Of a stretch of 64,000 nucleotides of DNA, positions 4,267-62,682 are shown piece after piece (position 1 is the stretch's first letter; the number at the start of each line of letters is the position of its first letter). This DNA is from Candidatus Peregrinibacteria bacterium (GTDB lineage: Bacteria; Patescibacteriota; Gracilibacteria; Peribacterales; Peribacteraceae): contig JAZDOT010000047.1 of NCBI GenBank assembly GCA_043798355.1, forward strand, positions 858-64,857. The letters are read 5' to 3'. A model generated the notes under the pieces. It saw only the letters and a list, made by a program, of their open reading frames with translations, was not told the DNA's origin and made no database searches. Position numbers and translations under genes: made by a program.

Positions 4267-4413
4267 AGCCGGGATAGAATGGCAGGATCTCTTTGGAGGG
4301 GCAAACAATCGAATGACCTTTCTGCCCTCTTTTTCTTCTTTGCCCTCTTTGCCCTCCCACATTCCTCCAAACAATTGCCCCCCTCCTCCAAGCCAAGTAC
4401 ACTAATCACCCCA

Positions 4414-20224: not shown

Positions 20225-20293
20225 TTTGCATTTCGCATTTTCAATTTTCAATTATCAATTCCCTTCGCCCTAACCCTAACCCTAACCCTAATC
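20225..20293. repeat. heptamer tract (GCATTTY/CAATTWT units) followed by the hexamer tract (CCCTAA)x4
   Basis: tttgcatttcgcattttcaattttcaattatcaattcc, then ccctaaccctaaccctaaccctaatcc flanked by ccttcgcc on both sides. It abuts the stop of the M23 peptidase gene. Confidence 0.9.
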
Positions 20294-20303
20294 CTTCGCC
20301 CTA

Positions 20304-22229: not shown

Positions 22230-22260
22230 CCCTTAGCCTTAGCCTTAACCTTAACCTTAC
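22230..22260. repeat. hexamer tandem repeat (CCTTAG/CCTTAA)x5 filling the ruvA-pgi spacer
   Basis: ccttagccttagccttaaccttaaccttac ends 1 nt before the pgi ATG. Confidence 0.9.
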
Positions 22261-25382: not shown

Positions 25383-26561
25383 TCACGTGACGATCTCCTC
25401 CACCCTCCCCTCCTCCACCGCCCTGCGAATCTCCATACCTATTCTCTCACCCACACTCATCGTCTCGCCATAGAGGTAGCGCGTGTACGGGGTGGCGAAG
25501 GTGCCAGGCGAGCCCGGGATGCGCATGGAGACGTCGAAGATGACGATATCCTCCCTGCCATCCTCCGCAACCACGGCACCCTGCAAGGCGAACGGTCCGA
25601 TGATCCCCTTGCCGGAGGGATCGATCTCGGGAGAGAGATTCTTCGTCGCAGAGACGAAGCGTTCCCCGATCTCGAATGCCTTCTCGAGGAGGGATTCCTT
25701 GACCGTGCAGGCGACGTGACCGGTCTCGATCATTTTCAGATCAATCCCTGCCTTCAGCACTTTCTCCTGCTCACTCCCGAGCATCCGGAGGAACCCATCC
25801 AGATTGGTCTGGCGACGCATGTCCGTGCCGAGAAGTTCTAATTGTCCCGTGAGTGGAGAGGAGAAGAAATTGAAATTCACCGGAGCACCCATGACGAATT
25901 CTTCGATGGTCGCCTTCCTCCAGGCGGAAGAAACCTTCCCCTCCTTCTCCATGCGAGTCCCCTCTTTCTCCCACTGCGCTGCACTATTGACGATGAAGAA
26001 CGCCCGCTCGTACTTCCGTTGTACCTCGCTCGCTTTCACGATGACCGGTCCGTCGATGTCTGCGGGACTCTTAAACATCCTCGGTGCGCGGATGCCGGCG
26101 ACGGAGAGGAGGTCGTACTGCGAGAAATGCTGGTCGCGCTCCTCGATCTTCAGGAGCGATCTGGAACCGAAGATCGGCAGTCTGAGCTCATGTTCCACTT
26201 TCGCGAAGTCGGAGAAGTACACCCAGAAGTAGCGATTATGTATAAATATTGTATTCAATTTTCTAAGCTTCTCCTGAATGTCCTTGTTCAATATATCCTC
26301 GAAATTATCGACAACGATTACTTCATCAATACAGCCAATGCTATCACGAGTCCTTCGTCCTAAGTCCTTCGTCCTAAGTCCTTCGTCCTTCGTCCTAAAA
26401 TATTCCGTGTACGTTCGCTCCCTCCCCTTCCGCGCTATGCACACCGTCCGGAATCCGTGCTTCTTCGCGCCATGCGAGACGTCCAGTGCGCTATGACCGC
26501 CAAGAACGCCGACTGTGAGATTGGCGAGATCGTAGCCCCTGAGGAGATCAGCAATATTCAT
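25383..26561 (-). CDS. purP: PurP-like ATP-grasp protein (archaeal-type FAICAR synthetase family), paralogue 1 with a repeat-encoded insert
   Basis: LGGHSALDVSHGAKKHGFRTVCIARKGRE.TY... aligns along its whole length with paralogue 2 and with my recollection of archaeal PurP (IATLGSHSAL...). Confidence 0.75.
   Translation of the reverse strand: MNIADLLRGYDLANLTVGVLGGHSALDVSHGAKKHGFRTVCIARKGRERTYTEYFRTKDEGLRTKDLGRRTRDSIGCIDEVIVVDNFEDILNKDIQEKLRKLNTIFIHNRYFWVYFSDFAKVEHELRLPIFGSRSLLKIEERDQHFSQYDLLSVAGIRAPRMFKSPADIDGPVIVKASEVQRKYERAFFIVNSAAQWEKEGTRMEKEGKVSSAWRKATIEEFVMGAPVNFNFFSSPLTGQLELLGTDMRRQTNLDGFLRMLGSEQEKVLKAGIDLKMIETGHVACTVKESLLEKAFEIGERFVSATKNLSPEIDPSGKGIIGPFALQGAVVAEDGREDIVIFDVSMRIPGSPGTFATPYTRYLYGETMSVGERIGMEIRRAVEEGRVEEIVT
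26349..26398. repeat. tandem repeat (TCCTTCG+TCCTAAG, 14-nt period) inside the purP paralogue 1 CDS
   Basis: agtccttcgtcctaagtccttcgtcctaagtccttcgtccttcgtcctaa. It encodes RTKDEGLRTKDLGRRTRD, which is absent from paralogue 2. Confidence 0.9.
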
Positions 26562-44751: not shown

Positions 44752-45717
44752 ATGAAATTAATCGCTGTGTTCTTCAATGAGCCAAACTTCCTCGATGATC
44801 CTTTCGACGAGGAAGAGTACCGGATCGCCTACCGGCAGATTGGGGAGCTCTTCGAAACGCGGGGCGGACGTTTCGCCATCGTCCGAAGTCCCGAGTCCTA
44901 CCGCGGCGGGAATACGTTCAAGGGGGGGTGGATCTTCCGGGATGGCGAATTCCAGAGGACTGAGGACATCCTCACGCCCGCCGTCATCTTCAACCGCGGA
45001 TCGTTCCTCGGCGATGGCAAGGCCGTCGTAGTCAATGACCCGGAACTGGAAACGCTTTGCACTGACAAAGCACAAACGTACGCACTCTTCCCCCACCTGT
45101 TCCCTCTCACGAAAACAGTCCACACCAAAGAGGAAGCAACGGCCTTTCTCCGCTTGATCCCGACCGCGATGGCTGTTGCCAAACCCATCGACGAAGAGGC
45201 GGGGCGGGGCGTGTTCATCCTCCCCAAGAAACAAATCCTGAAAGCGATTCCATCGTACCCATACCTGCTGCAGGAATTCATCGACACGTCCGCGGGCATC
45301 CCCGGCATCACGGAGGCGATCCACGACTTCCGCATCATCGGTATACGCGGCAAGCCTGTTGTCGCATACGTCCGCATGGCGAAACCCGGAAGTTACCTCG
45401 CGAACGTCGCCCGGGGGGCGACGATGCGGGAGGTGCCGCTCCCAACTGTCCCGCCCGAACCCATGCGCATCTTCGAGGAAGTGGATGCCGCTCTTCAGCG
45501 CTTTCCCGACCGCCTGTACTCCGTGGATACCGGCCGGGACAGAAGCGGCGTCTGGAAAATCATCGAGCTCAATACCAAACCGGGGACGTCCGTCATGGAG
45601 CAGGACCCCGGCACCCGCCGCTACCTCACGGGCATCGTCGAACTGCTCCTGTCGGTTGCGGAGAAATCGCCGTACAGCCATGAGCCCTTAGCTATCAGCC
45701 ATCAGTCTTCATCATAA
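44752..45717 (+). CDS. ATP-grasp family protein (YheC/YheD / RimK-like)
   Basis: AVAKPIDEEAGRGVFI...LLQEFID...DFRIIGIRGKPV.AYVR...ANVARGA...IELNTKPG. The C-terminal tail is encoded by heptamer repeats. Confidence 0.75.
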   Translation: MKLIAVFFNEPNFLDDPFDEEEYRIAYRQIGELFETRGGRFAIVRSPESYRGGNTFKGGWIFRDGEFQRTEDILTPAVIFNRGSFLGDGKAVVVNDPELETLCTDKAQTYALFPHLFPLTKTVHTKEEATAFLRLIPTAMAVAKPIDEEAGRGVFILPKKQILKAIPSYPYLLQEFIDTSAGIPGITEAIHDFRIIGIRGKPVVAYVRMAKPGSYLANVARGATMREVPLPTVPPEPMRIFEEVDAALQRFPDRLYSVDTGRDRSGVWKIIELNTKPGTSVMEQDPGTRRYLTGIVELLLSVAEKSPYSHEPLAISHQSSS

Positions 45718-45743
45718 GACGACCACCGCAAATGATTGCTAAA

Positions 45744-45762
45744 GGCTCATGGCTCATGGCTA
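45744..45762. repeat. heptamer tandem repeat (GGCTCAT)x2.7
   Basis: ggctcatggctcatggcta. The preceding stretch 45677..45717 (cagccat gagccct tagctat cagccat cagtctt) also has a 7-nt period. Confidence 0.85.
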
Positions 45763-45766
45763 ACAA

Positions 45767-47674
45767 TTACACTTTCACTCCTGTCAGCCATCGCGCCTTC
45801 ACTCTCCGTTCGGGGTTCGCGAGCGAGAGCAGCTTACACTTTTCGCGGTGGAGAATCACTTCCCCGGAGCGGCTGACGACGCCGATGATCTTCTCCCGCT
45901 TGCCCTCGGAGGGCTTGCAGCACTTCGCGTAGCGGATGGGCATCGGGAGCCCGCTCTCGATCTCCACGAGCGCATCTTTCCGCTGTCTGCGGTGCAGAGG
46001 GGAGGACGAGGCGGCATCGGAAAAATCCACCTTCTTGAGCGCTCTGAGATGGGACAGAACCACCGTGACTTTCTCCGCCTCCTGCCCGATCTTCATGAGG
46101 AGATCTTCCCGCTTCACGAGAGGCAGCACCGTCTGATCAAAGAACCGGAAAACGGAGAGATCCGTATCGAGGGGCGGAAGGTGATGCTTCGCGAGTTCCG
46201 CATTCGTAATTTCCTTGCCGCGTACGATGAATTCATCCCGGCGCTCGGCATAGAGGTGCCGCTTCAGCTTGGAACGGGAAGACGCCATGTGGAGGAGCTG
46301 CATCCACTGCGGGGAGGGACGGGGCGAGCTGAACTTCTGCACCTCGACGACATCGCCGTTCTCGAGCGTGTGATCGAGGGGAACGATAGAGCCATTCACT
46401 TTGGCGGACTTGAACGCGAGTCCGAGATCGGTATGGACCTGGAACGCGAAATCGAGCGGCGTGGCTCCTTCGGGCAGTTCGATGATTTCCCCCTTCGGCG
46501 TGAGGACGAAGATGTGATCCGCGAAAACCGGCTGACCTGAACCGGCGGCAACCTCCTCCTGCGAAGAGAGCATGGCATGGAGCTGCGCGTGCTCCATGGC
46601 TGCGCGCGTCGCACCGTGCTCCTTGTAGCTCCAGTGCGCGGCGATACCGTACTTGGCTTCGCGGTGCATCGTCTCAGAACGGATCTGCACCTCAATGAAC
46701 GTGTCCTGAGGTGCTGCGGGGAGCTGCGCGAGCGTGGTATGGAGACTCTGGTAGCCGTTCGGCTTCGGGAAGGCGATGTAGTCCTTGAAGCGGTTCGCGA
46801 CGGGGCGGCCGACCTGGTGCAGAACACCCAGCACCCGGTAGCACTCCTCGGCCGTCGGAACGATGAGGCGGATAGCGAAGAGATCCCTGACATCTTCCAC
46901 GTGCGTGATGCTCTTCGCGCACATCTTCCGGAAGATGCTGTAGGTCTCCTTCTCGCGGTACTCCATGGAAGCTTGCATCCCCTGCTCGCCGATCGTGCGC
47001 ACCAGTTCCCGCGCCGTCCGTTCGAGGAACCCTCCTTTTTTCTCCCGCACCTGTGCGAGTTGTTCCTGGATGCGCTCCGCATCGGAAGGGTAGCAGATGG
47101 GGAATGCCTTACGTTCGAGACAGTGCTTGAGCGCGTAGATACCGAGGCGCGCCGCCACGGGGGCAAAGAGGTTGAGGACGTCACTGGCGACCCTCCTCGC
47201 CTCCTCACCGGTCTTCTCTGAGAACTGATCCAGGAGCCGACAGCGGTCGCAGAGCGTGATGAGGATGACATGCAGATCGTCGGAGACGCTGAGAAGCATC
47301 AGACGCAGATCTTCGATGGAGTTCCGGCGGCTCTTCAGCGTCACATTGGAAAGGAGGTGGACCTCGCCCACGATGGAACGCACCTTCGGCCCGAACTGCT
47401 CCGCGATGTCGACGAGGGTCATCCCGTTTTTCGTGCGGAGCGCGTGGTGCAACAGAGCCGCGATGATGGCGTCTTCGTCCGGCTGGAACGGGAGAAGGAT
47501 CTCAAAAACCCCCAGCACATGTTCGAGGATGGATCCTCCGGCCCAGTGTTCCCCCTTGCCGACAAGCTCCTGCGCAATGCTGAATGCACGCATAACGCGG
47601 TCCGAATCGAAACCTTTCTTTTCAGCTTCGATGCGCTTGATGGCAGCCGTGAATTCGGCAGTAGTCATAGACAT
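45767..47674 (-). CDS. relA: bifunctional (p)ppGpp synthetase/hydrolase, RelA/SpoT homologue
   Basis: HD domain (HWAGGSILEHVLGV...ALLHH), synthetase domain (FKDYIAFPKPNGYQSLHT), then TGS and ACT-like C-terminal domains. A GTG at 47680 is an alternative start. Confidence 0.93.
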   Translation of the reverse strand: MSMTTAEFTAAIKRIEAEKKGFDSDRVMRAFSIAQELVGKGEHWAGGSILEHVLGVFEILLPFQPDEDAIIAALLHHALRTKNGMTLVDIAEQFGPKVRSIVGEVHLLSNVTLKSRRNSIEDLRLMLLSVSDDLHVILITLCDRCRLLDQFSEKTGEEARRVASDVLNLFAPVAARLGIYALKHCLERKAFPICYPSDAERIQEQLAQVREKKGGFLERTARELVRTIGEQGMQASMEYREKETYSIFRKMCAKSITHVEDVRDLFAIRLIVPTAEECYRVLGVLHQVGRPVANRFKDYIAFPKPNGYQSLHTTLAQLPAAPQDTFIEVQIRSETMHREAKYGIAAHWSYKEHGATRAAMEHAQLHAMLSSQEEVAAGSGQPVFADHIFVLTPKGEIIELPEGATPLDFAFQVHTDLGLAFKSAKVNGSIVPLDHTLENGDVVEVQKFSSPRPSPQWMQLLHMASSRSKLKRHLYAERRDEFIVRGKEITNAELAKHHLPPLDTDLSVFRFFDQTVLPLVKREDLLMKIGQEAEKVTVVLSHLRALKKVDFSDAASSSPLHRRQRKDALVEIESGLPMPIRYAKCCKPSEGKREKIIGVVSRSGEVILHREKCKLLSLANPERRVKARWLTGVKV

Positions 47675-49160: not shown

Positions 49161-49191
49161 CCCTAATCCTAACCCTATCCCTAACCCTACC
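49161..49191. repeat. telomere-like hexamer repeat (CCCTAA/CCTAAT variants) abutting the rplJ start codon
   Basis: ccctaatcctaaccctatccctaaccctacc, followed directly by ATG. Confidence 0.9.
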
Positions 49192-52903: not shown

Positions 52904-54096
52904 ACATGAATGATCGCTCTCCTCTCCTCCGGGCGAATATCCGATACCTCTTTGTTCTCAGTGCGCTCGGGAACATCGGCTTCTCGGTCCCGATCGTCAT
53001 CCTCTTCCAGGAATCCATCGGCCTCTCTCTGGAAGAAGCATTTCTCATCCAGGCCTTCTTCGCCATCTCCCTCGTCATTTTCGAGATCCCCTCCGGGTAC
53101 CTCTCCGACCGCTGGGGGAGGAAACGGACGACAGTCACCGGGTCCGCAGCCCTCTTCGTCGGCATGCTCTTCTACTGTTTCGGCGGCGGCTTCACGAGCT
53201 TCCTCCTCGCGGAGATCTTCCTCGCCCTCGGCATCAGTTTCCACTCGGGCACGCTGGAGGCCATCACCTACGAATCGCTCGCCGAGCTCAAGGAGGAGGA
53301 CCGGTACCGGAAAGTCAACGGGCACATGGGGTTCATCAGTCTCTCTAGCCGCGCCATCATGTCCCTCATCGTCGGATTCATCGCTGCGGTGAATCTCCGC
53401 ACCCCCTTCTGGGCGGATCTCTCGGTTCTCGCAATCGTCGTCATCGCCTCCCTGCTCCTCACCGAACCAGCCCGGAAGAAAATGCAGGAAGAGACGCACC
53501 TCACAGCCATCTGGAACATCTGCACCCATGCCCTCATCCGCTCCACCGTGCTCCGGAGCCTCATCCTGCTCTACACGGTGGTCGCCGCCATCAACCTCAT
53601 GCTCTTCTGGTTCCTGCAACCCTTCCAGGAGATGGTGAAGATGCCGCTCAGTGCATTCGGCTTGGTCAATGCATTGATCTACCTCGGAAGCGCGCTCGCT
53701 TCCAAGTACACCTATCTCGCCAAGCGCTGGATAGGCGACCGCGCCTTCCTCTTCCTTCTCGCAATCATTGCCGTGGGCAGCTGCTTCGTGCTCGGCTTCA
53801 TGACAACCATCATCGGCGTCACGTTCTTCTTCCTCGGAGAGACAACCTTCAATGCGTTCGAAACCCTCACGAGCGACCTCATGAACCGAGCTTTGACATC
53901 AGACATCCGCGCAACCGTCCTCTCACTGCGCTCGTTCACCTCCCGCCTCTTCTTCGCCTTGATCTCGCCCATGCTCGGCGCCGCCGCAGACCTCTACTCC
54001 GTCAATACCGCTCTCCTCATCACGGGCATCCTCGGCCTCGTGACCCTCGCCCTGACGGCTGTGATGCTCCGACCGGCGTGGAGGAAGATGACGTGA
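52900..54096 (+). CDS. MFS transporter
   Basis: The start overlaps the upstream stop (ATGA). It has about 12 TM helices and an MFS loop motif, GYLSDRWGRKRT. Confidence 0.85.
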   Translation: MNMNDRSPLLRANIRYLFVLSALGNIGFSVPIVILFQESIGLSLEEAFLIQAFFAISLVIFEIPSGYLSDRWGRKRTTVTGSAALFVGMLFYCFGGGFTSFLLAEIFLALGISFHSGTLEAITYESLAELKEEDRYRKVNGHMGFISLSSRAIMSLIVGFIAAVNLRTPFWADLSVLAIVVIASLLLTEPARKKMQEETHLTAIWNICTHALIRSTVLRSLILLYTVVAAINLMLFWFLQPFQEMVKMPLSAFGLVNALIYLGSALASKYTYLAKRWIGDRAFLFLLAIIAVGSCFVLGFMTTIIGVTFFFLGETTFNAFETLTSDLMNRALTSDIRATVLSLRSFTSRLFFALISPMLGAAADLYSVNTALLITGILGLVTLALTAVMLRPAWRKMT

Positions 54097-54150
54097 GTTG
54101 TGAGCTATGAGCTATGAGCTTTGAGCGGGCAACGGACAGCGGACAGCTGG
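54093..54150. repeat. heptamer tracts (RTGAGYT)x5 and (CGGACAG)x2
   Basis: gtgagttgtgagctatgagctatgagctttgagcg starts at the MFS stop codon. It is followed by acggacagcggacagc. Confidence 0.9.
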
Positions 54151-54892: not shown

Positions 54893-57672
54893 TCAGAACG
54901 CCCTCAATCGCGCTTCGATCTTCTTCAGTTTCTCCTTGGCGCCCAAAAGCCTCTCACGCTCAGTTGCGATGACTCCCTCGGGCGCATTCTCGAGAAACTT
55001 CTTGTTCTTCATTTTCGCTTCGATGCCGTGCATAAATTTTCGCACATGTTCGGATTCCGCAAGGAGTCTGGCCTGTTCTTTGGCGAGATCGATGACGCCG
55101 ACGAGCGGAAGGTGAACCTCCATGTCCTTCAAAAACACGCTCGCAGCGTGCTCGTGAGTCTGAGGAGCGGCATCAATCGAGAGCGAACTCAGCTTCCCCA
55201 TACGGATGATGCGCTCCCGTTCCGCTTTCAGCGTTTTTTCAAATTTCTTCGAATGGATGAAGACGGGAACGCAGGTCCCCTGCTCGATCATGTGCTCCGC
55301 ACGAATGCTGCGGATGGCGGAGATCGCTTCAATGATGGCCTGCATCCCCTCTTCGGCATCGCTGTCACGCAAGGATTCATCGACCTCCGGCCACGGCTCG
55401 CGGATGAGGAGGCCCGCACCTTCCGGCCTGATCTGCGACCATAACTCCTCCGTGACGAAGGGGCAGTACGGATGGAGCAGGTGAACGATCGTGCGCAGCG
55501 CATGAACGAGGACGGCGGGATTCGCTGAGCCTTTTTGGATCTCCAGATACCAGTCGCAGAAGTAGTCCCACACGAAGGCATACAAACGCTCCCCGACCTC
55601 GCTCAGGCGGTCATGTTCCAGCCCGCTCGTCACATCCGCAACCACTCGTTGCAGGGAAGACAGAAGCGCCCGATCTGCCGTCGACAAGTTAACTGTTAAC
55701 AGTTGACAGTGAACTGCTTGCGGATCGATTTTGGCCTTTTCACATTGAAGTAATACAAATCGCGACGCATTCCACAGTTTATTGATGAAGTTCCGGTACC
55801 CCGCGATCTTCTCCGTGTACAACTGGAAGTCATTCCCGGGCATCTGCCCGACGATCATCGCGAGACGCAGCGCATCCGCCCCGTACACCGGAATAATCTC
55901 GAGAGGATCGACACACGTCGTTGGATCCGACTTGCTCATCTTCTTCCCCTCGCGCGTCCGGACCAGCCCGTGGAGGTACACGGTTTTGAAGGGGATCTGT
56001 CCGATCGCGTAGGTCGTCATGAGGATCATCCGCGCCACCCAGAAGAAGAGGATATCCCCGGCGGTCTCGAGCACGTCCGTGGGATGGAACTTCCGGAAAT
56101 CAGGGCTCTGCTTGAGCAGATCCTCAAAGGAGAGGGAGAAATCCGAAGCAATCGCGGGATCGATGAGGGTGGACCACGTCCAGAGGCCGGACGAGAACCA
56201 CGTATCGAGCGTGTCAGAGTCCTGTTCCACCTTCCCACCGCAACGAGGGCAATGATCGACCGGTTGGGATGAAACGATGACCCCCACATCCCCGCCAGCT
56301 GTGAGCTGTGAGCTGTGAGCTGCTCATCGCTGATCGCTGATCGCTCAACGCTTGCATGAACGCTCTTTCCATCCGCACACTTTGAACAATAATAAACAGG
56401 AATCCGATGCCCCCACCAGATTTGGCGCGAGATGCACCAGTCGTGGAGGTTATCGATCCAGTTGAAATACACCTTCTCGAAGCGGTCCGGAATGATCCGG
56501 ATGTCGCGGCTCCGAATGACGTCCTGCATCACCTGCTTGAGGCTCAGCTTCGCCCCTTTCCAGTGCACTGCCGGCTTATGAACATCGATGAACCACTGCT
56601 CTTTGACCTGTGGTTCCACGATGCCTTTCCCCCGATAGCTCACTGCCACACGGTGCACGTAGTTCTCGTCCACCTTCACGAGGAGCCCCTTGCTGCGGAG
56701 CTTCTCAACCACACGCGGACGCGCCTCTTCGATAGGCATCCCCGCGAATTCTCCGGCAACGGAGAGGAGCTTCCCGTCGAAATCGATGATCTGCTCGCGG
56801 TCGAGCCCATGCCGCTCCGCCAGATCGAAGTCCACCTTGTCATGCCACGGCGTCACGGTCATGACACCCGTCCCGAACGCGGGATCGATCGCATCTTTAT
56901 CTTTAATGACCGTCGCTTTGACCGGCCCGTTGATCCACTCGCACTCGAACGTGGCGCCGTTCTTATACTTGGCATAGCGCTCGTCGTCGGGGTGCATCAC
57001 CACGTACTTGTCACCGAATTTGGTCTCGGGCCGCGCGGTCGAGATCTGGAAGGGGCCGTACTGGAACGTATAGTACGGGGCTTTCTCCTCGCGGTACTCG
57101 ATTTCATCGTCCGAGACCGTCGTCTGCATGACGGGATCCCAGTTCACGATCCTCTGTCCGCGGTAGATGAGGCCGTCCTTGTACATCTTCACGAAGACCT
57201 CGTGAACTGAGCGGTTCAGTGCCGGATCCAGCGTGTAGCGCTCGCGGCTCCAGTCGCAACTGGCGCCCATCTTCCGGACCTGGGAACGAATGGTTGCCTG
57301 GCTCTTCAGGACGAAGTCGGCAATGCGCGCGACCAGTTTCTCCCGCCCGAGTGCGGCACGGGGATCTTTCATTTTCTCCTCTTTCTGAATTTTCTTGATG
57401 ACCACGCTCTCCGTTGCGATGGCGGCATGATCCGTACCGGGCAGCCATAATACCTCCTTCCCGCGCATCCGGGCGAAGCGGATGAAGATGTCCTCGAGCG
57501 CCAGCATGACGGCATGCCCGATGTGCAATTGCCCCGTCGCATTGGGCGGGGGCATGGAGATGACGAAGGGGTCTTTCTTGCTATTGGCATCGGCTTTAAA
57601 CGCCCCGCTCTCCTCCCAGAGAGCATAGATTTTATCCTCACAGGCCTTTGGATCGTACGCTTTAGGAAGCAT
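54893..57672 (-). CDS. valS: valine--tRNA ligase, reading frame broken (apparent -1 shift) within a heptamer repeat tract at about 56290..56323
   Basis: The N-terminal ORF (MLPKAYDP...PPPNATGQLHIGHA...WWGHRIPVYYC) runs into the repeats. The C-terminal ORF (VIVSSQPVDHCPRCGGKVEQDSDTLDTWFSS...KMSKS...coiled coil) is in another frame. Confidence 0.9.
56297..56345. repeat. two adjacent heptamer tracts, (AGCTGTG)x3.7 and (SATCGCT)x3, inside valS
   Basis: agctgtgagctgtgagctgtgagctg ctc atcgctgatcgctgatcgct. Confidence 0.92.
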
Positions 57673-57940: not shown

Positions 57941-58082
57941 CGACCTCACCCCTGCCCCCTCTCCACTCTCGTGGAGAGGGGAACTGTGTATGTTTCTGTT
58001 TGTTTTTCTTCCTGAAGAAAACAAACAGTACACAAAACATCTCCCTTCTCCATCGCGATGGAGAAGGGCTGGGGATGAGGTC
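57941..58082. mobile_element. GC-rich foldback (MITE-like) element, un-nested sibling of 36715..36941
   Basis: tcgacCTCACCCCTgCCCCCTCTCCAC...GGAGAGGGGAACTGT...ctgtttgttttt/aaaacaaacag...CTCCCTTCTCC...GGAGAAGGGCTGGGGATGAGG. The arms are mutually reverse complementary. Confidence 0.5.
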
Positions 58083-59213: not shown

Positions 59214-60097
59214 TGTATAATAGAGTGGATATGCTCCCGCAAAAACCAAATCTCAGAAAAACGCTCACCGGACGACTGGATGCCCTCGCAGGTATGACTT
59301 ACACGCGTCTCCTTCTGCTCTGGTGCGCACTCACGGTGATCTTCACGGCCATCTACTTCGTCCTGAGCCGTTTCGTCCCTGCACATGCCCCGCAGGCTCT
59401 GGTCCCGCTGGACGCGCTCCATGCACTCACCGACAGCCTGTACTTCAGCATCATCACTGCGACCTCCACCGGATACGGAGACATCGTCCCGATGGGTTTC
59501 TCCAAGGTGCTCGTGTGCATCCAGATCACGAGTTCGCTCGGGATCTTCGCGGTCTTCGTCACCAAACTGGTCTCGCGCAATCAGGAGGCGACGCTCCGGG
59601 AGGTGCATCGCCTGACGTACGAGGATATCTTCCATAACTCCCGCGAGGATCTCTTCCTCATCCGGCACGATCTGGACCTCATCATTGAAGAAGCGCATGC
59701 ACTCGGGAAGGTCCGCGAGGAATCGTGGGGAAATCTCACTGCCGCGCTGCGGCAGGCCCAGAGCATCATCCAGGAGATTCCCGACTTCTACGACACGGAG
59801 GAGAAGCTCTATACCATCGACCCCCGGCGCGAAGAAATCCTCCTCGAGGCGGTCCACCGGACGCTCCACCGCATCGATAAGATGCTGGAAATCTTCAGTC
59901 TCTCGGCGATCGAATGGACCGGTCATGAAGAGAGCCTGCGGGAACTCGTCGCTCTTCTGCACCTCGTAGAGGAAACAGCGTTCCTCTGGCAGGAACGTTC
60001 GCCGTACCAGAACATGGAGGCGTTCGCCGATATTATCGCCGTACGGCAGAAGATGCACGGACGAATAGAGAAAGATTTCGAAGCGAAGCACTCATAG
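59210..60097 (+). CDS. potassium channel family protein (2TM pore with cytosolic helical domain)
   Basis: Selectivity filter TSTGYGD. The start overlaps the FmdB stop (ATGA). Confidence 0.85.
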   Translation: MMYNRVDMLPQKPNLRKTLTGRLDALAGMTYTRLLLLWCALTVIFTAIYFVLSRFVPAHAPQALVPLDALHALTDSLYFSIITATSTGYGDIVPMGFSKVLVCIQITSSLGIFAVFVTKLVSRNQEATLREVHRLTYEDIFHNSREDLFLIRHDLDLIIEEAHALGKVREESWGNLTAALRQAQSIIQEIPDFYDTEEKLYTIDPRREEILLEAVHRTLHRIDKMLEIFSLSAIEWTGHEESLRELVALLHLVEETAFLWQERSPYQNMEAFADIIAVRQKMHGRIEKDFEAKHS

Positions 60098-60173
60098 CTC
60101 ATGACTCACCCCTCGATGCCACTCGGGGCAAGCAGCGTATAGCTGCGCTCTCGGCTCTTTCGCATGCATCATG

Positions 60174-62651: not shown

Positions 62652-62682
62652 CCCTAACCCTAATCCTAACCCTAATCCTACC
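62652..62682. repeat. telomere-like hexamer repeat (CCCTAA/CCTAAT variants) overlapping the methyltransferase stop codon
   Basis: ccctaaccctaatcctaaccctaatcctacc is near-identical in style to 49161..49191. Confidence 0.9.

Follow-up and report, generated by a model that had tools for sequence, protein, structure and literature searches.

The gene for valyl-tRNA synthetase (valS; the protein, ValRS) was found split between two reading frames, at an array of the heptanucleotide CAGCTCA, in a 64,000-nt stretch of DNA from Candidatus Peregrinibacteria bacterium (assembly GCA_043798355.1, contig JAZDOT010000047.1, positions 858-64,857; hereafter the window, whose coordinates are used throughout). 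The split is probably a technical undercount of the array by one 7-nt unit, in which case the living cells carry an intact gene. We therefore recommend that the annotation show an intact valS whose array is probably one unit short, and neither a pseudogene nor a recoding site. The array itself is part of a 56-63-nt heptad-repeat element, often hairpin-forming, that is translated in frame, and the loop in which it lies proved, across Peribacteria, to be a hot spot of perfect heptamer arrays.

The valS gene lies on the minus strand and runs from an ATG at 57672 to a stop codon at 54893; a listed open reading frame (ORF) of 624 aa begins at an upstream GTG (57900), which is not the real start. 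From the ATG, frame A opens with the N-terminus MLPKAYDP, as in orthologues, and reads through the repeats to ...SVERSAISDEQLTAHSSQLAG. Near the junction it reads ...YYCSKCADGKSVHASVERSAISDEQLTAHSSQLAG, followed by 87 nonsense codons and a stop at 56026-56028. The N-terminal part so encoded (461 codons, 56290..57672, minus strand, by translation) contained the Rossmann half, the editing domain, the WCISRQ motif, and the first CxxC zinc knuckle, and was 82-84% identical to Peribacteria ValRS. The out-of-frame tail of frame A (MWGSSFHPNRS..., 87 codons, 56026..56289, minus strand, by translation) had no homology to ValRS. The conserved continuation, DVGVIVSSQPVDHCPRCGGKVEQDSDTLDTWFSS, was instead located in the -1 frame (frame B), which opens after a TGA at 56324..56326 on the minus strand, reads ...AGGDVGVIVSSQPVDHCPRCGGKVEQDSDTLDTWFSS..., and ends at the stop codon at 54893. 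Translation and ValRS alignment delimited this C-terminal part to 54893..56290 (minus strand); aligned to Thermus thermophilus ValRS (1GAX), it comprised the second CxxC knuckle, DTLDTWFSS, KMSKS, and the anticodon-binding and C-terminal coiled-coil domains. The break therefore fell between the two knuckles, which are 44 residues apart in the window valS compared to 16 in the T. thermophilus enzyme. Since the TGA closes frame B upstream, the frame change must fall 3' of it, and the first codon at which frame B could restart is a GTG at 56285..56287 (minus strand, by translation).

At the break the coding strand reads GTTGAGC GATCAGC GATCAGC GATGAGC AGCTCAC AGCTCAC AGCTCAC AGCTGGC GGGGATGTGGGGGTC. 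Tandem Repeats Finder (TRF) identified two adjoining arrays here, a perfect period-7 array of (CAGCTCA)x3.7 at 56297-56322 (100% matches; AGCTGTG on the plus strand) and an imperfect one of 4.4 copies at 56322-56352 (87% matches). Chance falls far short of explaining a perfect period-7 run of 26 nt in 64 kb. An earlier reading of the bare sequence (the sequence-only reading) had proposed that the valS frame is broken exactly at a heptamer repeat and that the conserved continuation lies in the -1 frame opening at the TGA at 56324-56326, and both proposals were borne out by translation, the first also by the TRF arrays. The distance from start to junction, given there as 3k+2, is 57672-56287 = 1385 = 3x461+2. 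That reading had named the repeats correctly in the case of CAGCTCA x3.7 on the coding strand, but GATCGCT, like AGCTGTG, is a plus-strand unit; the upstream array on the coding strand is GTTGAGC GATCAGC GATCAGC GATGAGC, with only 2.9 perfect copies.

We edited the copy number of the array in silico from 0 to 7 units. A single open frame was obtained only with 1, 4, or 7 full units (-2, +1, or +4 relative to the window); the addition of one unit gave one ORF of 928 aa, and the removal of two gave one of 921 aa. That one extra unit, or two fewer, would restore the gene had been predicted from the sequence, and the intact orthologue of Peribacteria bacterium RIFCSPHIGHO2_02_FULL_51_15 (locus L007, protein P0028) carries precisely that extra unit and the same loop peptide. 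Its loop, SDERSAMSDEQLTAHSSQLTAGGQSGIIVSS, is encoded by (CAGCTCA)x4.6; in the simulation the window valS plus one unit would encode SVERSAISDEQLTAHSSQLTAGGDVGVIVSS, and the restored loop SDEQLTAHSSQLTAGG was identical to that of L007. When the two genes were aligned, their difference at the array was exactly one 7-nt gap. Judged from this orthologue, the functional form would contain 4.7 CAGCTCA units, encoding ...SAISDEQLTAHSSQLTAGGDVGVIVSS... within a 928-aa enzyme. The window array (56297..56322, minus strand) has 3.7, and the loss of 7 nt would shift the frame by -1 and so split valS; TRF, the gap relative to L007, and the simulation all place the missing unit in this perfect microsatellite.

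No other lesion was found in either half of valS, where 926 codons (2.8 kb) are open besides the 7-nt gap, nor did a crude codon-usage map of the 64-kb window reveal another split gene. Adjacent same-strand ORF pairs flagged by codon usage (rplJ/rplL, thioredoxin and its neighbour, relA and dtd) were separate genes. In addition, the WCISRQ and DTWFSS motifs were in one frame with no intervening stop in 80 of 80 related loci. Because the related loci are in frame, no other gene is broken, and both halves are conserved, valS is unlikely to be an old pseudogene or to contain a conserved programmed frameshift. The joined ValRS was 72% identical over 100% coverage to that of Candidatus Peribacter riflensis, and its best matches all came from Peribacteraceae or Peregrinibacteria of the candidate phyla radiation. 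The gene is flanked by those for an ion channel, a Zn-ribbon protein, LexA, an MFS transporter, and a LytR-family protein, arranged as in relatives, which indicates that the window valS is the orthologous copy.

How a single unit could be lost was examined in de Bruijn graphs. The graph of the in-frame sequence was cyclic at k=21-26 for the window valS plus one unit and at k=21-25 for L007, and no cycle was present at k>=27 in either. The shortest, cycle-free path through the graph was exactly the broken sequence observed. The 33-nt array would thus form a cycle at k 21-26, and the cycle-free path would yield the sequence in the assembly; a weakly supported stretch built from small k-mers, or the wrong choice at a bubble, would undercount the array by exactly one unit. 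Metagenome assemblers usually begin at k=21, so a one-unit undercount is the specific error expected where support from larger k is thin. The k<=26 cycle argument may also serve as a simple test for similar breaks in other metagenome-assembled genomes.

A second, independent broken case was identified. The 90% cluster of P0028 contained a 537-aa N-fragment, ending in ...DEQLTAHSSQ followed by PVGNPALLF, and a 416-aa C-fragment, both encoded on the same 4449-nt ENA contig, k141_839004 (L083), whose name is MEGAHIT-style. L083 was 99.82% identical to L007, with one mismatch and one 7-nt gap (one CAGCTCA unit) in 4449 nt, and the gap lay in the same array. Within this species L083 has 3.6 units, compared to 4.6 in L007 and about ten other contigs, in which valS is intact. 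Both broken cases are thus -1 and never +1, which k-mer collapse specifically predicts; a biological slip could equally well add a unit. As a separate observation, the last 141 nt of L083 (4309-4449) matched L007 599-739 and 9206-9342 at 100%, and this contig thus ends in a repeat about as long as the final k-mer. A search with the window N-fragment gave three other truncated ValRS, which were rejected as heptamer cases: the loop with the frameshift in P0285 contains no repeat, the L086 scaffold becomes chimeric beyond the second array-bearing loop described below, and L087 is interrupted by a stop, with substitutions, where the contig ends in sequence of low quality. A protein search with the 175-aa stretch around the loop returned short, distant fragments only and no close relative. 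Exact matches to the window LexA and to the valS C-fragment were sought without success, and a DNA pattern anchored in the flanks had no match among metagenome contigs.

Several observations weigh against a technical undercount. A perfect period-14 array of 41 nt elsewhere in the window (26349-26389), likewise cyclic at k=21, is uncollapsed, so any collapse must have been a local event as opposed to a systematic one. With a length of at least 64 kb the contig is likely to be reasonably well covered, and SPAdes contigs of only 3-4x coverage retain arrays of 29-32 nt (L051, L084). Both breaks are in CAGCTCA, and a sequence-specific biological instability could explain this equally well. Slippage clearly happens in vivo in this lineage and allows for a real -1 allele; the copy numbers given here are those of assembled sequence. 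In the corresponding alternative, the 3.7-unit allele is real: one unit was lost through slipped-strand mispairing in the population or cell that was sampled. The assembler may then have caught a minority or recent lethal variant, or one of several genome copies of a polyploid cell in which another copy is intact; no working enzyme would be made from the broken allele. We regard this as possible but the less probable account, with perhaps one chance in four in its favour. The loop arrays differ by three units between close relatives and by unit and length between species, which indicates that they expand and contract in vivo: the close orthologues L084 and L085 (at least 90% identical) differ by exactly three units (21 nt, PSAVSCQ), in frame. 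Moreover, the -1 state was found twice, in two species, and valS is otherwise undamaged, as a very recent event would predict. However, valS is essential, and an inactivated essential single-copy gene should not reach consensus frequency; the occurrence of -1 without +1 is what k-mer collapse predicts; and slippage should be rare in simple-sequence repeats as short as 4-5 units. Of the causes offered by the sequence-only reading, repeat collapse or assembly error is therefore the best supported, and heterogeneity of copy number is a possible cause. Under either account the array is a real, slippage-prone microsatellite, and in valS of this lineage only changes of three units survive.

Decoding of the broken frame into full-length ValRS by recoding, or use of the copy number as a reversible on/off switch of growth, we consider very improbable. 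Recoding could proceed by a -1 slip of peptidyl-tRNA(Gly) on G GGG at 56293-56290, giving ...SSQLAGDVGVIV... (...SSQLAGDVGV...), or by re-pairing of the tRNA one or two repeat units off, and predicts junction peptides such as SSQLAGDVGVIVSS or SSQLTAGGDVGVIVSS. The G GGG A site is properly placed and a slip there does yield the conserved continuation; identical codons also recur every 7 nt in the array. However, the coding strand between 56326 and 56280 contains no X XXY YYZ slippery heptamer, only the G GGG run, and the L083 break is followed by a different post-array sequence with no comparable slip site. A frame change was conserved in none of the 80 related loci, the window element folded no better than shuffles (z -0.3 to -1.5), and Rfam gave no match at the break region. 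A switch is suggested by a unit length indivisible by three, a trait of contingency loci, but the array is short and the gene is essential and neither a surface nor a restriction gene. Programmed frameshifting or phase variation, as raised by the sequence-only reading, thus found no support, with no slippery site and every examined orthologue in frame. Equally improbable is that valS is a true pseudogene with a second valS elsewhere, or a two-piece enzyme restarted at GTG 56287. This GTG stands directly at the start of the conserved continuation, and split class Ia synthetases are known, with Aquifex aeolicus LeuRS and fragment complementation of Escherichia coli IleRS as examples. Yet the sequence ahead of this GTG does not resemble the C/T-rich leaders found before most starts in the window, the N-fragment would bear an 87-aa nonsense tail, and the split occurs in none of the orthologues at the 80 loci. 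Against a pseudogene, there are no further disabling mutations in 2.8 kb, valS occupies its conserved syntenic position, and the ValRS is one and the same sequence in four Ca. P. riflensis accessions, as would be expected of a single copy per genome. A broader proposal, that the 3.7-unit valS is a reversible growth-stopping off state, or is tolerated through polyploidy, or is decoded by tRNA re-pairing, and that an undescribed process spreads the arrays, would place an essential translation enzyme under the control of a microsatellite; taken as a whole we judge it highly unlikely. The technical undercount remains our preferred explanation of the split.

The sequence-only reading had missed that the repeat tract is one copy of a repeated heptad-array element that is present elsewhere in the window, in other genes, and in other genomes. 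In the window valS the translated element spans 8 heptads (56294..56349, minus strand); its in-frame form has 9 heptads, or 63 nt and 21 codons. The restored 63-nt element was 88.9% identical between the window and L007, compared to 62.8% for the whole genes, and only 0.28% of 63-nt windows between the two genes were as similar. Elements of the CAGCTCA/AGCTCAA group carry ahead of this array an inverted one, (nnTGAGC)n, and the nine heptads together form a long imperfect hairpin. The z scores for folding were -3.4 to -3.9 in L007, L002, L059, and L013, and +0.3 for the L029 element. The window valS element was rejected as a strong hairpin (z -0.3 to -1.5, as given above), its left arm having diverged.

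At this first hot spot, between the CxxC knuckles, perfect arrays of varying units were found across Peribacteria. Besides CAGCTCA x4.6 in L007, these were AGCTCAA x4.6 in L059 and L002 (the latter with one mismatch), AAAACTC x4.1 in L013, AGGTGTC x4.4 in L029, AGTGGAA x3.6 in L012, GAAAATG x4.1 in L051, and GATCAGG x3.7 in L046. Some 600 nt downstream, a loop at the start of the anticodon-binding domain forms a second hot spot: 13 related loci have perfect arrays there, and the window has a decayed in-frame GTTAACT-like array of 4 copies (55687..55714, minus strand, 76% matches by TRF). Six genomes had perfect arrays at both valS hot spots. The unit was identical at both in two of them (GAAAATG at 4332-4360 and 4947-4976 of L051; GATCAGG at 1752-1777 and 2353-2385 of L046) and one base apart in L049 (2180-2206 and 2735-2765). 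Independent local slippage would not give the same unit at two separate valS loops. The unit AAGTGGA was also seen in four genomes, at the second hot spot in L006 (7847), L033 (7841), and L055 (2851) and at the first in L012 (7338). With respect to the first loop, we further observed that P0100, a ValRS relative of 1080 aa, carries a histidine-phosphatase domain (PF00300) of about 180 aa inserted between WCISRQ and DTWFSS, which illustrates how much this loop tolerates.

Perfect heptamer arrays were strongly enriched in Peribacteria. A count of perfect tandem repeats with 3 or more copies over 688 kb of Peribacteria loci gave 32 for period 7, compared to 5 for period 6, 2 for period 9, and 1 for period 8, and no perfect period-7 repeat of at least 3 copies was found in 220 kb of loci from other candidate phyla. 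A scan for imperfect repeats likewise gave 48 for period 7 and at most 13 for any other period. The 57 arrays contained 43 distinct units, 10 of which recurred; palindromic 4-mers were weakly enriched in the units (23 of 43, against 15.7 +/- 3.2). Perfect heptamer arrays are therefore a lineage-wide feature of Peribacteria that recurs at tolerated loops of an essential enzyme.

Heptad arrays were not confined to valS. Within the window, GCTCAnn arrays were located at 45679-45763, 54090-54126, 56294-56349, and 60090-60108 (11 matches, counted at 5 places, with 0.23 expected). The first is an inverted TGAGC/GCTCA-family pair (45679..45763, no strand assigned) that forms a hairpin between convergent genes (fold z -6.6 for 45670-45775), and the left arm of this hairpin encodes the C-terminal tail SHEPLAISHQSSS of an ATP-grasp ORF (44752-45717). 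The TGAGC/GCTCA-family array at 54090..54126 (plus strand) begins at the stop codon of the MFS transporter gene, and a short one at 60090..60108 (plus strand) lies at the 3' end of the ion-channel gene. These two arrays were seen to contain a TGA (or TCA on the other strand) in each unit and to begin at or overlap gene stop codons, and three of their units place a stop in all three frames. A period-7/14 array, translated in frame as RTKDEGLRTKDLGRRTRD, was found in a PurP-family gene (DUF1246 + DUF1297; ORF 25383-26561) at 26349..26398 on the minus strand, 41 nt of which are the perfect period-14 repeat noted above. Outside the window, a composite element, TTTGAGC GATTAGC TTTGAGC GATGAGC (AGCTCAC)x4, lies in frame at a GT4 domain linker in a family-4 glycosyltransferase gene (L081; z -5.7). 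The hosts of in-frame arrays, comprising two valS loops that vary relative to T. thermophilus ValRS, the PurP-family protein, and the GT4 linker, appear from sequence comparison to be tolerated surface loops of unrelated proteins.

The composite element is 89% conserved in genes that are 63% identical and is also present in an unrelated gene, which suggests that some active and sequence-specific source supplies these very small genomes with short translated repeats. In the most far-reaching reading, the improbable one mentioned above, Peribacteria would generate or disseminate perfect heptanucleotide arrays, their units genome-specific, by a process as yet undescribed. How such arrays grow is an evolutionary puzzle, because in essential genes only steps of three units are viable. 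Of these findings, the translated heptad-array elements, which recur at particular loops of essential genes and whose units are partly genome-specific, are the part that merits follow-up.

The heptamer-array family is apparently undescribed. Nothing relevant on heptanucleotide or other tandem repeats in Peribacteria, Peregrinibacteria, or the candidate phyla radiation was found in the literature searched, and the Ca. P. riflensis genome paper does not mention heptamer arrays. The closest analogue is the family of Rickettsia palindromic elements (RPEs), in which repeated palindromic DNA is inserted in frame in many genes (PMC10969869). Both kinds of element are repeated, occur between genes as well as in frame in unrelated genes, including essential ones, and, once translated, add to the protein a loop, predicted to be on the surface for the heptad elements, that is compatible with its fold (PMC10969869 for RPEs). 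RPEs are palindromic, and hairpins were likewise strong in several heptad elements (L007, L002, L059, L013, L081, and window 45670-45775) but not significant in the window valS and L029 copies; the RPE-like hosts of the heptad elements are the two valS loops, the PurP-family gene, the tail of the ATP-grasp gene, and the L081 glycosyltransferase. However, RPEs are about 100-150 bp long and have a conserved family consensus and no internal repetition, whereas the heptad elements are 30-63 nt long and consist of 7-nt tandem units, with many different units across genomes. Unlike RPEs, the heptad elements thus behave as microsatellites that are able to shift the frame.

Similarities with other systems were more limited. 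Contingency loci are exemplified by the tetranucleotide repeats in ORFs of Haemophilus influenzae and the heptanucleotide repeats upstream of hmw1A. The likeness to valS is that an ORF contains a tandem repeat of a unit length indivisible by three, such that the gain or loss of one unit switches the frame. Contingency arrays often exceed 10 units and lie in non-essential surface, restriction, or lipopolysaccharide genes in which both states are viable; the valS array has 3.7-4.7 units in an essential gene, and its off state should be lethal; the off form seen in L083 may be an assembly artefact. Heptanucleotide units do occur among the simple-sequence loci of H. influenzae (PMC8262952). The broken valS resembles programmed -1 frameshifting, as in dnaX and IS elements, in that two frames overlap and the downstream part is in the -1 frame, but it has no canonical slippery heptamer and no frame change conserved in any orthologue, and the comparison of its fold with shuffles, which included no pseudoknot search, gave no sign of a stimulatory structure. 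The short tandemly repeated repetitive (STRR) heptanucleotide sequences of cyanobacteria, reportedly described by Mazel and colleagues in 1990, are likewise lineage-specific tandem heptanucleotide families scattered through the genome. They differ in belonging to another phylum and lying mainly in non-coding DNA of heterocystous cyanobacteria, and we know of no STRR that forms in-frame inserts at recurrent loops of essential enzymes.

Further features of the window were recorded. Upstream of valS, at 57955-58070, three consecutive near-perfect hairpins lie within about 1.2 kb that holds no convincing gene; Rfam gave only weak miRNA-precursor-like noise there on both strands, and over the whole window it identified two tRNAs only. 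Intergenic telomere-like hexamer arrays, (CCCTAA)n or (CCTTAG)n, of about 4.8 copies were located at 20268-20295, 22231-22259, 49161-49189, and 62652-62680, and two of them abut start codons (ATG 22262, and ATG 49192 of the L10 ribosomal protein gene). When the 30 nt upstream of about 30 starts were inspected (e.g. 2993, 34706, 38539, 49773, and 62435), a Shine-Dalgarno sequence was absent from most genes. The leaders before start codons were instead C/T-rich (ttcctcttcct, cccccctccctc), suggesting that translation is initiated in an uncommon manner in this lineage.

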